This document shows, piece by piece, positions 25,940-31,962 of a stretch of DNA of 63,769 bases. Numbering within the stretch: the stretch's first letter is position 1; the number at the start of each line of letters is the position of its first letter. The notes below the pieces were generated by a model, which saw only the letters and a program-made list of their open reading frames with translations, was not told the origin of the DNA and did no database searches. Position numbers and translations under genes: made by a program. Source of the stretch: Emiliania huxleyi CCMP1516 (lineage: Eukaryota). The stretch spans positions 124,232 through 188,000 of the forward strand of contig NW_005201123.1 in NCBI RefSeq assembly GCF_000372725.1. The letters run 5' to 3'.

Positions 25940-26140
25940 GCAGGGGGGGGGGGGGTCCGCCTGCTTTTCGCTGCACATGCTGAAGCCGCCAGGCGCTGTG
26001 AATAGCAGGCGTGGTCTGTACCCTGCTGCCTCCTCCTCCTCTCTGCCTGAAAAAGAATTCTCGACCGTGATCCTTGTTCGTTGTTGCGGGAAAAAGAATT
26101 TTCCGATTTTTTTTCAAGCTTCGAGAGATCTCGGCTGATG
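25940..26140 (+). repeat. mosaic dispersed repeat shared with 27303-27580
   Basis: CTGTGAATAGCAGGCGTGGTCTGTACCCTGCTGC and TTCAAGCTTCGAGAGATCTCGGCTGATG occur in both regions. GGGGTCCGCCTGCTTTTCGCTGC is inverted between them. Confidence 0.8.
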
Positions 26141-27577
26141 TATACAAGCGACATCGGATCGATCGAGCACGAACGAGCGTACTACCGACCCCCGTTTTCG
26201 GCCGTCGCGGCCGGAGAGCACCCCCGTCGCCCCCCGGGGCCCGTCGACACCCCAGGAACGGGCTGCAACAAAGGCAAGCTCGTTGCTGGGTGTGCAGCCG
26301 CCATCCATCTGCTGCTGCTCAGAGCACTCGTTTGACGTACGGACCGACCTTCGTCAGCCTCGTGCCAGGCGTCGAGACGCAAGAAAAAAATTCTGATCTG
26401 ACGTTCAACGCGAGTAGGGGTCAAGGACCGGGCGTTGAACCCAGTCCTTGTGACCGACAGAGGTAGGTCCCACCGGACGGACCGCTCAGCTCCTCCGTGT
26501 CGGGCCGTGGTAAAGTTTTGTGAGATGGACTGCCGCTGGCGCTCGCTCGGTGTAACACGACGGAGGACACCTCTGGCTCGATGACGGATCACTCAAATCA
26601 CGCAATTCTCACACCCCAAGTAGCTAGGAGGGATCTCTTGCCGCTGGAGGTGAGCTTGCTCCTCACTGGGCGGGCAGCAGCGCACGCACACGCACAATAC
26701 GGCTGCATGACGCACTGCAACAGTATCTTCCCCAGTGCGCCATGTGCTCACTTTCCACCTTTCTCACTTGTGCTGCGGTGTGCGCACAGATTCACTGCCG
26801 TTTGAGCGTAATGTGAGGAGATGAGAGGAAGCTTGCCGACGAGGTCCAGGGTGAACGTCGACGGCCGTCGAATCGACGTCTCCGTGGGTGACCACTTTCA
26901 CATCCAGCACGGATGCCTTGTTGTCACAGCCACAAGTAGTCGAAATACGAAAAGAGGTCCGCCGCTCTAGCCGATTGTAGCCGGCTCAGCATAAGACACA
27001 GCGACGCGTCGTAAAAGTCTGTGAGTCCAACCCAGTCAGCTTCTAGGTATGAGGCCATAGCCGCGTCGAAGCTCGGCTCGTAGTCCGCGTCGTGCAAGGA
27101 GACGGACGGAGTGGGGACACTCTTGGCCTGATGTCATGGCGCGCGCCTGATAGTTCCAAGGCTCGTAGCATCCCTGCCAACGCTTACCCAGTGGGTGCAT
27201 GTAGAAGTAGAGGCTGTTCTCGAGGTTCTCGAGGTGGATATCCTTTGGCCGCGTTGGGTAGCGAGGATCGATGTCGCTTGTCGGAGAGCCAAGGACAAAC
27301 AAGCAGCGAAAAGCAGGCGGACCCCCCCCCTGCCAGGCTCTGTGAATAGCAGGCGTGGTCTGTACCCTGCTGCTGCAGCCTCCTCCTCTCTCTGAAAAAG
27401 AAAGAAAACAGACAACCCAGGGGAGGGATGGGAGAAGGCACGCCGCCACCACACAGGGATTTTAAGGAGAGGGGTGTGGTGCGCTAGCCGTCGCCCACCC
27501 TTGGGCCTCCGCCTCGCCACAATTCGCGGATTTCTTTTTCGACGCCCCGCTCTTCAAGCTTCGAGAGATCTCGGCTG

Positions 27578-28556
27578 ATGTTCGCCCTCTCCTTCTCCCC
27601 GCTCGGCTGGAGCGCGACCGTTCGCGCGCCTGGCGCGGCCGCCGGCGCGGCCGCCCGCTTCGAGCGTCCGCTCGTCATGAACGAGGCGGCCGCCAAGGCA
27701 GCCTGGCTCGCCTCGCTCGACCAGCCTTCCTGGGGACCAAAGGCTGCCGCCGTTTCCGCCACCGCGGCCCCTGATGCAACCACGCCGTTTTCCGCCCAGT
27801 CCGAGGCGGCCGCCAAGGCTGCCTGGCTCGCATCGCTCGACAACGAGCCGTCGTGGCTGGGAGCGGCGACTCCAACGGCGGTGGCCAGCGGCGCGCCCCC
27901 GGCATCGCTGTCCGAGGCAGAGGCCAAGGCCCCCCCTCACCTCGTTCAAACCCGTCTCCGACGCGCACGATATCTCCATACCCACCCCCCAGCCATGAAT
28001 AGGCCAAGTGGCTCGCCTCTCTCGACTCTGAGCCATCGTGGCTGGGCGGCGTGGGTTCTGGCACGCCCTTGTCCGAAGCGGCAGCGAAGGCTGCCTTCGC
28101 CTCTCCCTGCGCCGCCCGCTCTACGATAATTTAATCACGGTCCACGGAATACAGGCCAAGTGGTTGGCGAGCCTCGAGACGCAGCCTTCGTGGCTGAGCA
28201 AGGGGCCTGCGGCGGCGCCGGCGCCGGCCTTTGACGCTGCCCCGCCCCTCGCGGCGATGAGCGAGGACGCCGCAAAGGCTGCCTGGCTCGCATCGCTCGA
28301 TTCGACCCCCTCCTGGCTAGGGAAGGGAAGTGCGGCGCCCGCGGCGGCCTCGGCGCCGGACATGAGCGGCAGCGTGGTGCCGACCAGCGTGGGCCTCTCG
28401 GAGGCGGACGCAAAGGTGGCCCAAGCAGCATCCCTCTTGTCTGAACCCAAAACTCCCCCGCAATCGTTCACCACGCTCCTCACTCCACTCTCATCGTCAA
28501 AATAGGCCAAGTGGCTCGCTAGCCTGGAGTCGCAGCCGTCGTGGGTTCGCAACTAG
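27578..28556 (+). CDS. 249-aa six-repeat Trp-sticker protein, probably plastid-targeted (candidate pyrenoid Rubisco linker); exons 27578-27928, 28003-28089, 28155-28415, 28506-28556
   Basis: Three phase-0 introns (GC-AG, GC-AG, GT-AG) join exons of 117, 29, 87 and 16 codons plus TAG. Six copies of [SN]E..AKA[AK]WLASL[DE]..PSW. Confidence 0.85.
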
Positions 28557-29504
28557 CCTTGCAGCGGGCGTGGGCCGATTGGCCTCCCTTGGCCGAAGCC
28601 GGTTTGGGCAAGATTCGGGATTCCTCCCTATCTGTTTGAGATGATCGCAATTGCATGAAGCGCCGAGCTGTGTCTGCTCCTCGCATGGCATTTCCGTGGA
28701 TGGCCGGACCTTGCCGGACTCGGGGAGTGGGGCTGGCCCCCGCTGTCTGTCACTGTTTCCGACATTGCTGTGAGATATGTGTGTTGCTGTTCGGTGTTGG
28801 TCTTGGCAACACCAACAGGTCAGGCTGTTGGCTACATAGAACATACACAACGGCTAGGACGCTAGGATTCGGAGTCCCGCGGGTCGGACGCAAAAGGCCA
28901 TTAATCACGAAAAAAAGAAGAATCACGGCCAGGCAGTCGGCGCACGGGCCTCGGGCGCACGGCCCACGCTCAAGCGTCAAGGAGAAGGACAAAGATCAAG
29001 CGCGGTATCTCCGGGGCCCGCTCTGGACCGAACGCACGAAGAGTGTCTAGATGAAGTCTCAAGGTCTCAACCGTCGACCAAAACGTATAGGGTATAGACA
29101 AAGGCAACGGCCGACGGGCCCGACGCGCGATCAGCGATCGGACCACACGTCGACAGAATGCGCATGCGGGACATACAAGATACATGCGCGCAGCGCGGCC
29201 GCGGGCACGGCGCGCACGGGGCACCGGCAGACCGCCGCCACAGCGGCGTGACGCATACGAGGCGGTGCGCCGGGGGCCTGCCTGGGGCGCTCGAGCGCAA
29301 GCGTCGGGCCTCTCGAGCATCCCTCGCGGGCGCGCGCGTACATGGTATCACGACCCGCGCCGCGCCGCCTCCCGGCGCTGCGGGGCGACTCAAGCTCGGA
29401 GCATTCGGGCCCGAGTCTGCGCACTGGCAGCCGTGCCCGACCGGTCGAGTGCGAACGGGCCCGCTGGCTCGACAGGGACGGCTCGCGGCGCCGGCAGCGC
29501 CCGC

Positions 29505-31536
<2,032 letters not shown>

Positions 31537-31848
31537 TCAGCCCCCGTTGCTCCCCTCTCCGGGGCCTGGCGGGGGTGGGGCCTCTTTGCGGCACACAGCG
31601 AACAAAAGATTTTAGAACAAAAGATTTACCTCAGTTGCCCGGCGCTGCTTGCAGCACCATGGCGAGGGCGCTAAGAGGTTCCTCTTTTCCGCGCCCCCCC
31701 GCAAGGCGCGCGATACACACACCACCGAGTATGCCAGGAGTGAGTGCAGAAGAACGATGAGAGTGGGACGACCGCGAGGTGGCATGAAGGTTGCATGCAG
31801 CGAGAATCGGCGAGAGACTGCGAAAAGAGATACGAAGAGGCAGACTCC

Positions 31849-31962
31849 CTAGGGTGGGCGACGGCTAGCGCACCACACACCTCTCCTTAAAATCCCTGTG
31901 TGGTGGCGGCGTGCCGTCCTCCCATCCCTCCCTTGGGTTGTCTGTTTTCTTTCTTTCTTTCT
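31849..31962 (-). repeat. dispersed repeat, inverted copy of 27396-27505 (partial copy at about 41512-41548)
   Basis: GGGTGGGCGACGGCTAGCGCACCACAC.CCTCTCCTTAAAATCCCTGTGTGGTGGCGGCGTGCC...GGGTTGTCTGTTTTCTTTC. Confidence 0.85.

Follow-up and report, generated by a model that had tools for sequence, protein, structure and literature searches.

The gene at 27578..28556 on the plus strand of the window (the whole stretch of 63,769 nucleotides analyzed here) encodes a protein with six copies of a tryptophan-bearing motif. This motif is probably a Rubisco-binding motif of haptophytes, and the protein one of several likely linkers of the pyrenoid matrix. By analogy with green algae, we infer that the 249-residue protein would enter the haptophyte plastid. 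There, each of its Trp motifs, helical by prediction, would attach weakly to Form ID Rubisco, and the six copies together would hold Rubisco in the pyrenoid matrix by cross-linking, plausibly with phase separation. A bestrophin and membrane-anchored proteins that carry the same motif would tie this matrix to the pyrenoid thylakoids. The motif would then be the haptophyte counterpart of the Rubisco-binding motifs of Chlamydomonas and Chlorella, and the protein studied here one of several paralogous soluble linkers.

The gene has four exons, which when joined give 750 bases and a translation of 249 amino acids with a single, terminal stop. A sequence-only reading had proposed three phase-0 introns, and these are borne out by joints that skip exactly 74, 65, and 90 bases in 8/8 runs compared, from 6 studies. 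The runs compared are 8 of the 9 that contain the gene (3 recorded as RNA and 5 guessed to be RNA). All three joints are crossed by single contigs of two recorded RNA runs (X7, 27584-28859; X8, 27563-28870). The ATG at 27578 is taken as the start, because one RNA contig begins at 27546 and no Met occurs in frame upstream of it. Database records of the gene, among those seen, contain intron read-through or are fragments, and the spliced form of the protein had no match in a database search that scored 7995 candidates. The features are as follows:

27578..27928, plus strand: exon 1, with the leader, motifs 1 and 2, and the start of motif 3 (translation and RNA joints)
27578..27679, plus strand: N-terminal leader of 34 aa, plastid-presequence-like by length and terminal Met, with a weak hydrophobic core
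27680..27736, plus strand: motif 1 (aa 35-53), without intron (motif HMM, codon analysis)
27800..27859, plus strand: motif 2 (aa 75-94), without intron (motif HMM, codon analysis)
27911..28044, plus strand: motif 3 (aa 112-131), interrupted by intron 1 (RNA joints, codon analysis)
27929..28002, plus strand: intron 1, 74 bp, GC-AG, phase 0 (joint in 8/8 runs compared)
28003..28089, plus strand: exon 2 (translation and RNA joints)
28072..28196, plus strand: motif 4 (aa 141-160), interrupted by intron 2 (RNA joints, codon analysis)
28090..28154, plus strand: intron 2, 65 bp, GC-AG, phase 0 (joint in 8/8 runs compared)
28155..28415, plus strand: exon 3, with motif 5 and a G-x-V-V-P-T element (translation, family comparison)
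28260..28319, plus strand: motif 5 (aa 182-201), without intron, predicted helix (AlphaFold2, codon analysis)
28398..28547, plus strand: motif 6 (aa 228-247), interrupted by intron 3 (RNA joints, codon analysis)
28416..28505, plus strand: intron 3, 90 bp, GT-AG, phase 0 (joint in 8/8 runs compared)
28506..28556, plus strand: exon 4, coding part including the stop (translation and RNA joints)
28557..28899, plus strand: 3' untranslated region as covered by RNA contigs, its end undefined

Each intron interrupts its motif between the same two codons, and the interrupted repeats are exactly those three in which Lys precedes Trp; in the other three, the uninterrupted position reads AAG-GC, a proto-splice site. 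This pattern suggests that the repeats fall into two old lineages or that introns were gained at this position. When the intron sequences were compared, the three were not more similar to one another than shuffles are. High GC content and GC-AG introns are typical of haptophytes.

In the translation, the first Trp of the motifs falls at residues 43, 83, 120, 149, 190, and 236, a spacing of 29-46 residues, just as it had been read from the DNA. This spacing falls within the window of 20-120 residues between repeats that FLIPPer uses as its linker criterion (PMC11570498). The six copies score 29-42 bits each against a motif HMM, which found no further copies elsewhere in the 63,769-nt window. 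The protein had been said to end immediately after the sixth motif; it ends close to it, with two residues remaining beyond. Spacers described as rich in Ala, Pro, Ser, Gly, and Thr do consist of these residues to 73-88%. Selection at the protein level, also proposed earlier, agrees with a comparison of the 14-codon core between repeats, in which 78 of the 114 differing codon pairs are synonymous. All three proposals, namely the gene model, the build of stickers and spacers, and selection on the protein, are confirmed. Structure prediction points to helical motifs joined by spacers of coil; for exon 3 alone, AlphaFold2 places a helix on motif 5 and leaves most of the remainder as coil, with low confidence (mean pLDDT 57). 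The G-x-V-V-P-T element of this exon is common to 18 of the 152 relatives examined, among the matches listed.

These relatives come from a profile search of 1.84 billion representatives, which returned 353 clusters (50% identity) at E<=1e-3, 171 of them at E<=1e-10. The 152 proteins examined are the best 150 of the 353 matches, a choice that favors proteins with many repeats, plus the hits of two other searches; the studied gene and its near-identical copy (P0001, P0089) were left out. Among the matches listed, the 152 proteins hold 725 motif copies by the motif HMM, their shuffles hold 0, and the median spacing is 45 residues. The consensus is approximately E-x-x-A-K-x-A-W-L-x-[KRS]-L-D-x-P-x-W, or, in a second version, has [KR] in place of [KRS] and a final G; the motif spans about 19 residues with two Trp. 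Conservation reaches 86% at E-7, 91% at K-3, 77% at D+5, 72% at P+7, and 69% at W+9; as the profile was made from the family itself, these figures are descriptive and no test of the motif. Like the studied protein, 49/152 members (among the matches listed) have their last Trp no more than 16 residues from the C-terminus. By its sequence, then, the studied protein belongs to a large family of paralogues and is not a unique linker. Species names were attached to 2 of the 17 motif clusters looked up, both of them Prymnesium parvum; these names, together with the high GC content and the GC-AG introns, underlie the assignment of the window to haptophytes.

The repeats might instead be amphipathic helices that bind membranes, lipid droplets, or each other, after the fashion of LEA-type proteins, a stress-protective family. 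The Ala-rich helical repeats with two Trp each and the low-complexity spacers would suit such a role, yet we consider it improbable. The hydrophobic moment of the motif is low (0.20) and single residues are conserved rather than merely a pattern, a combination that fits a protein-binding epitope, and proteins that are already anchored in membranes carry 2 to 11 copies. Scanning of 148 proteins (among the matches listed) and the studied protein gave no Pfam family that fits the motif, and, the bestrophin described below aside, no carbonic anhydrase, activase, or other known pyrenoid protein occurs among the best 150 of the 353 matches. PDB sequence searches with family profiles gave 0 hits in one case and one hit at E 0.57 in the other, and the ESM Atlas gave no usable match. 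UBA_RNF31 matched 17/148 proteins in Pfam, 9 of them reaching the cut-off; as no single stretch passes, these matches were discarded as artefacts of summed repeats, and a SHOCT match in P0114 was likewise a summed short-repeat match and not a clear domain.

The sequence-only reading had also assigned the protein a plastid-type presequence. Its length and terminal Met agree with that assignment, but its hydrophobic core is weak and fails our crude test (1.29 against a cut of 1.8). In the family, by our own crude hydrophobicity rule (cut 1.8), a signal-plus-transit-like start is found in 36 of the 68 members with room for a leader (among the matches listed), vs. 2 of 544 internal Met controls. 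The first Trp of the studied protein, at 43, lies inside the range of 34-62 seen in leader-bearing relatives. The family is enriched for plastid-type leaders, and we infer import of the studied protein as well. The weak core could also mean that this paralogue stays outside the plastid, or that it is a minor family member in decay. Either case seems very unlikely, as the frame is intact, splicing recurs across the 6 studies, synonymous differences predominate, the allelic leaders of the gene differ by an in-frame indel of two residues, and the leader is as long as in the family.

Four types of protein carry the motif. The first comprises soluble repeat proteins without Cys pairs, among them the studied protein, which contains no Cys at all. 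The second, which includes P0021, has a C-x2-G-x3-A-C module, present in 110/152 relatives among the matches listed; in these, a conserved helical hairpin with the Cys pair can stand directly ahead of the motif. AlphaFold2 models one such protein as helical hairpins on a string, the second helix entering the motif (pLDDT 80.4, pTM 0.41), and a Foldseek search with the hairpin model gave 0 hits. The hairpin, which has no PDB match, may act as a disulfide switch. The Cys pair beside an A-W helix in these relatives resembles CP12, where Cys pairs occur together with an AWD helix, and raises the question of whether the family regulates Calvin-cycle enzymes by redox in the manner of CP12, with the studied gene as a member minus the cysteines. 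We give this reading hardly any credence: no CP12 Pfam match appeared at E<=1 (five relatives) or at E<=1e-4 (148), the PDB searches returned no CP12 chain, the studied protein has no Cys to begin with, and a bestrophin tail would be unexpected for CP12.

The third type has a predicted membrane helix, seen in 10/152 relatives and placed ahead of all motifs in 8 (among the matches listed). A twin-Arg hydrophobic stretch follows the leader in 7 members, chosen by eye among the matches listed (P0003, P0007, P0076, P0080, P0118, P0149, and P0152). Each of these has a leader, the twin-Arg stretch, a coiled-coil-like part, and then a tail of motifs, and most have one predicted membrane helix. A search of these twin-Arg sequences against NCBIfam turned up no Tat-signal model. 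Their layout is that of the thylakoid tethers RBMP2 or Chlorella PMTT, and they are candidate thylakoid tethers themselves.

The fourth type is represented by P0087, a bestrophin by its Pfam match (PF25539, E 3.4e-59); a plastid-type leader precedes the channel and five motifs follow it. The bestrophin is the only clear known domain among the 148 proteins scanned (among the matches listed). The cluster of P0087 (P0087/P0185/P0186) brings together the annotation of the P. parvum genome and a pair of JGI records that carry 5 and 4 motif copies, and since annotation and records agree, the fusion of bestrophin and motif is unlikely to be a single gene-calling error. This bestrophin is a candidate counterpart of RBMP1 of Chlamydomonas. 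The link comes from 1/148 proteins scanned, that is, one cluster with one named species.

Long N-termini unlike haptophyte leaders were noted in P0009, P0115, and P0005. The signal-like part of P0009 ends in x-H-G-R, which is near the GHG-RR leader pattern described in kareniacean dinoflagellates (PMC11014865), and such N-termini could possibly reflect transfer along with a haptophyte-derived plastid. A bolder proposal can be put forward only tentatively: haptophytes may have evolved a full Rubisco-binding code of their own, which would be the first pyrenoid motif shared among proteins of a red-plastid lineage. In it, one Trp helix would serve soluble linkers such as the studied protein, Tat-anchored thylakoid tethers, and a pyrenoid bestrophin; most linkers would bear the helix on a disulfide-closed hairpin, through which the redox state of the stroma would control condensation; and the whole may have moved with the plastid into kareniacean dinoflagellates.

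The same distribution over carriers is known from green algae (the background cited here is drawn from the available parts of each source). Chlamydomonas has a single Trp motif, shared by EPYC1, the bestrophin RBMP1, the membrane protein RBMP2, and SAGA1/2, which binds to Rubisco and organizes the pyrenoid (PMC7673724, PMC10473226). This motif, [D/N]W[R/K]xx[L/I/V/A], is frequently C-terminal (PMC7673724) and, in the available part of a review, is reported only in Volvocales. Chlorella sorokiniana uses another motif in the same design, with CsLinker, PMTT, PMST, and RHOP (PMC11570498; bioRxiv 10.64898/2026.07.17.739135). As in Chlamydomonas, the haptophyte motif is short, helical by prediction, and repeated on disordered spacers, it is common to soluble repeat proteins, a bestrophin tail, and transmembrane proteins, and it often has a C-terminal copy. 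As in CsLinker, there are six helical stickers, and the motif recurs on a transmembrane tether. The match between the haptophyte carrier set and the Chlamydomonas and Chlorella design leads us to propose that the motif would bind Form ID Rubisco.

The differences from these systems are also clear. The haptophyte motif is a different one (about 19 residues with two Trp, with Ala before and Leu after the Trp), the EPYC1-family motif is absent from the haptophyte consensus, and many haptophyte relatives have the Cys-pair hairpin, which the available descriptions of EPYC1, CsLinker, and PYCO1 do not include. The partner would be Form ID Rubisco, whereas CsLinker belongs to the green lineage and to Form IB Rubisco and has no PDB sequence match to the haptophyte family profiles. 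PYCO1 of Phaeodactylum tricornutum likewise comes from a red-lineage plastid and has six Trp-bearing stickers (PMC10288592). Its weak C-terminal RbcL-binding helix is also Ala-rich with a Trp, a loose likeness that is out of register by one residue (PMC10288592). PYCO1 is, however, basic and prion-like with KWSPRGGS and GTGYNP repeats (PMC10288592), both of which are absent from the studied translation, and the available text reports no PYCO1 homologues in other algae (PMC10288592). PYCO1 (pI 10.03) and EPYC1 are described as positively charged, whereas the mature chain studied here is acidic (computed pI 4.56). Thus the studied protein shares with the linker class its sticker spacing and disorder-type spacers and not its positive charge, which is frequent in the class and is not known to be necessary.

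The idea of a pyrenoid linker, which the sequence-only reading had advanced, therefore gains from the motif on membrane-anchored proteins and, five times over, on the bestrophin tail, and it loses from the acidic chain, the protein's own weak leader, its membership in a large family, the single cluster behind the bestrophin link, the Cys hairpin in relatives, and the absence of further known pyrenoid proteins from the best 150 of the 353 matches. The acidic chain also suits another possibility, in which the motif would dock its carriers to a plastid hub different from Rubisco (PyShell, the CbbX activase, or some thylakoid complex) and the protein would be a multivalent scaffold for that hub. 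The family evidence is a plastid motif shared by soluble and membrane proteins and does not name the partner, and PyShell homologues are present in haptophytes according to the available part of a diatom pyrenoid preprint. We nevertheless consider such a hub rather unlikely: in both green algae where a motif links disordered repeat proteins and membrane proteins the partner is Rubisco, and the motif spacing suits Rubisco cross-linking.

If Rubisco is the partner, as we favor, the site could be on RbcS helices or in the RbcL pocket into which PYCO1 fits its C-terminal Trp helix (PMC10288592); both are guesses. The residues of this pocket are kept at 6/7 positions in the haptophyte-lineage RbcL P0221, and as they are mostly also kept in cryptophyte RbcL, the pocket does not discriminate. 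RbcS position 70 (alignment A2) is Met in 88/89 prymnesiophyte-type sequences and Ala or Ser in 15/16 others; it sits on the second helix and is a possible lineage-specific binding patch. A complex prediction of motif 1 with RbcS of Tisochrysis lutea (P0318) and RbcL P0221 gave no answer (0.00 in both runs, made on sequences without alignments) and counts neither for nor against binding. The RbcS that accompanies P0221 is 81% identical to that of Haptophyceae sp. NIES-3900. Three environmental rbcL-rbcS operons (L016, L040, L043) have the same strain as their closest named RbcS (81% to the RbcS of L040). No prymnesiophyte RbcL came from a primer scan, which gave mostly cryptophyte operons, from viral scans, which gave none, or from a genome scan, which gave 80 loci titled bacteria.

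The literature searched (supplements and most subscription journals lying outside it) held no description of a haptophyte Rubisco linker or pyrenoid-targeting motif, and strings of the motif occurred only in three unrelated papers. The available part of a 2026 review names EPYC1, CsLinker, PYCO1, PPAP28, and RbcS-STAR and no haptophyte protein (PMC13655443), and the available main text of the FLIPPer paper does not mention haptophytes (PMC11570498). Two diatom pyrenoid preprints, PMC13544437, PMC5462543, and PMC5853415, in their available parts, also belong to this background; according to PMC5853415, Diacronema (Pavlova) lutheri lacks a pyrenoid. Whether Rubisco-binding motifs organize the pyrenoids of other lineages, red-plastid algae included, is posed as an open question in a 2023 review and in a July 2026 preprint (bioRxiv 10.64898/2026.07.17.739135). 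The gene and its motif family are real, are undescribed within the literature searched, and combine a linker-like build with a place outside the known linker sequence families. Haptophytes, among them coccolithophores, Phaeocystis, and Prymnesium, have a major part in marine carbon fixation; the 19-residue motif offers a peptide for immediate testing and a query with which to search for the pyrenoid proteome of haptophytes, and possibly a part for condensing red-type Rubisco in engineered plastids.

In the surrounding window, a scan of 119 ORFs found no pyrenoid gene cluster near the gene, the neighbors being SDR, KH, SRP54, bromodomain, and glycosyltransferase genes. The SRP54 gene (29505-31576, minus strand) lies downstream, tail to tail with the studied gene, and has seven spliced joints, several of which, as printed, do not have GT-AG ends. 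Upstream are short dispersed repeats at 27215-27275 and 27397-27515, which also occur in a large number of unrelated RNA contigs. A further copy of the second lies at 31837-31956 (93%), and part of it near 25950-26140.
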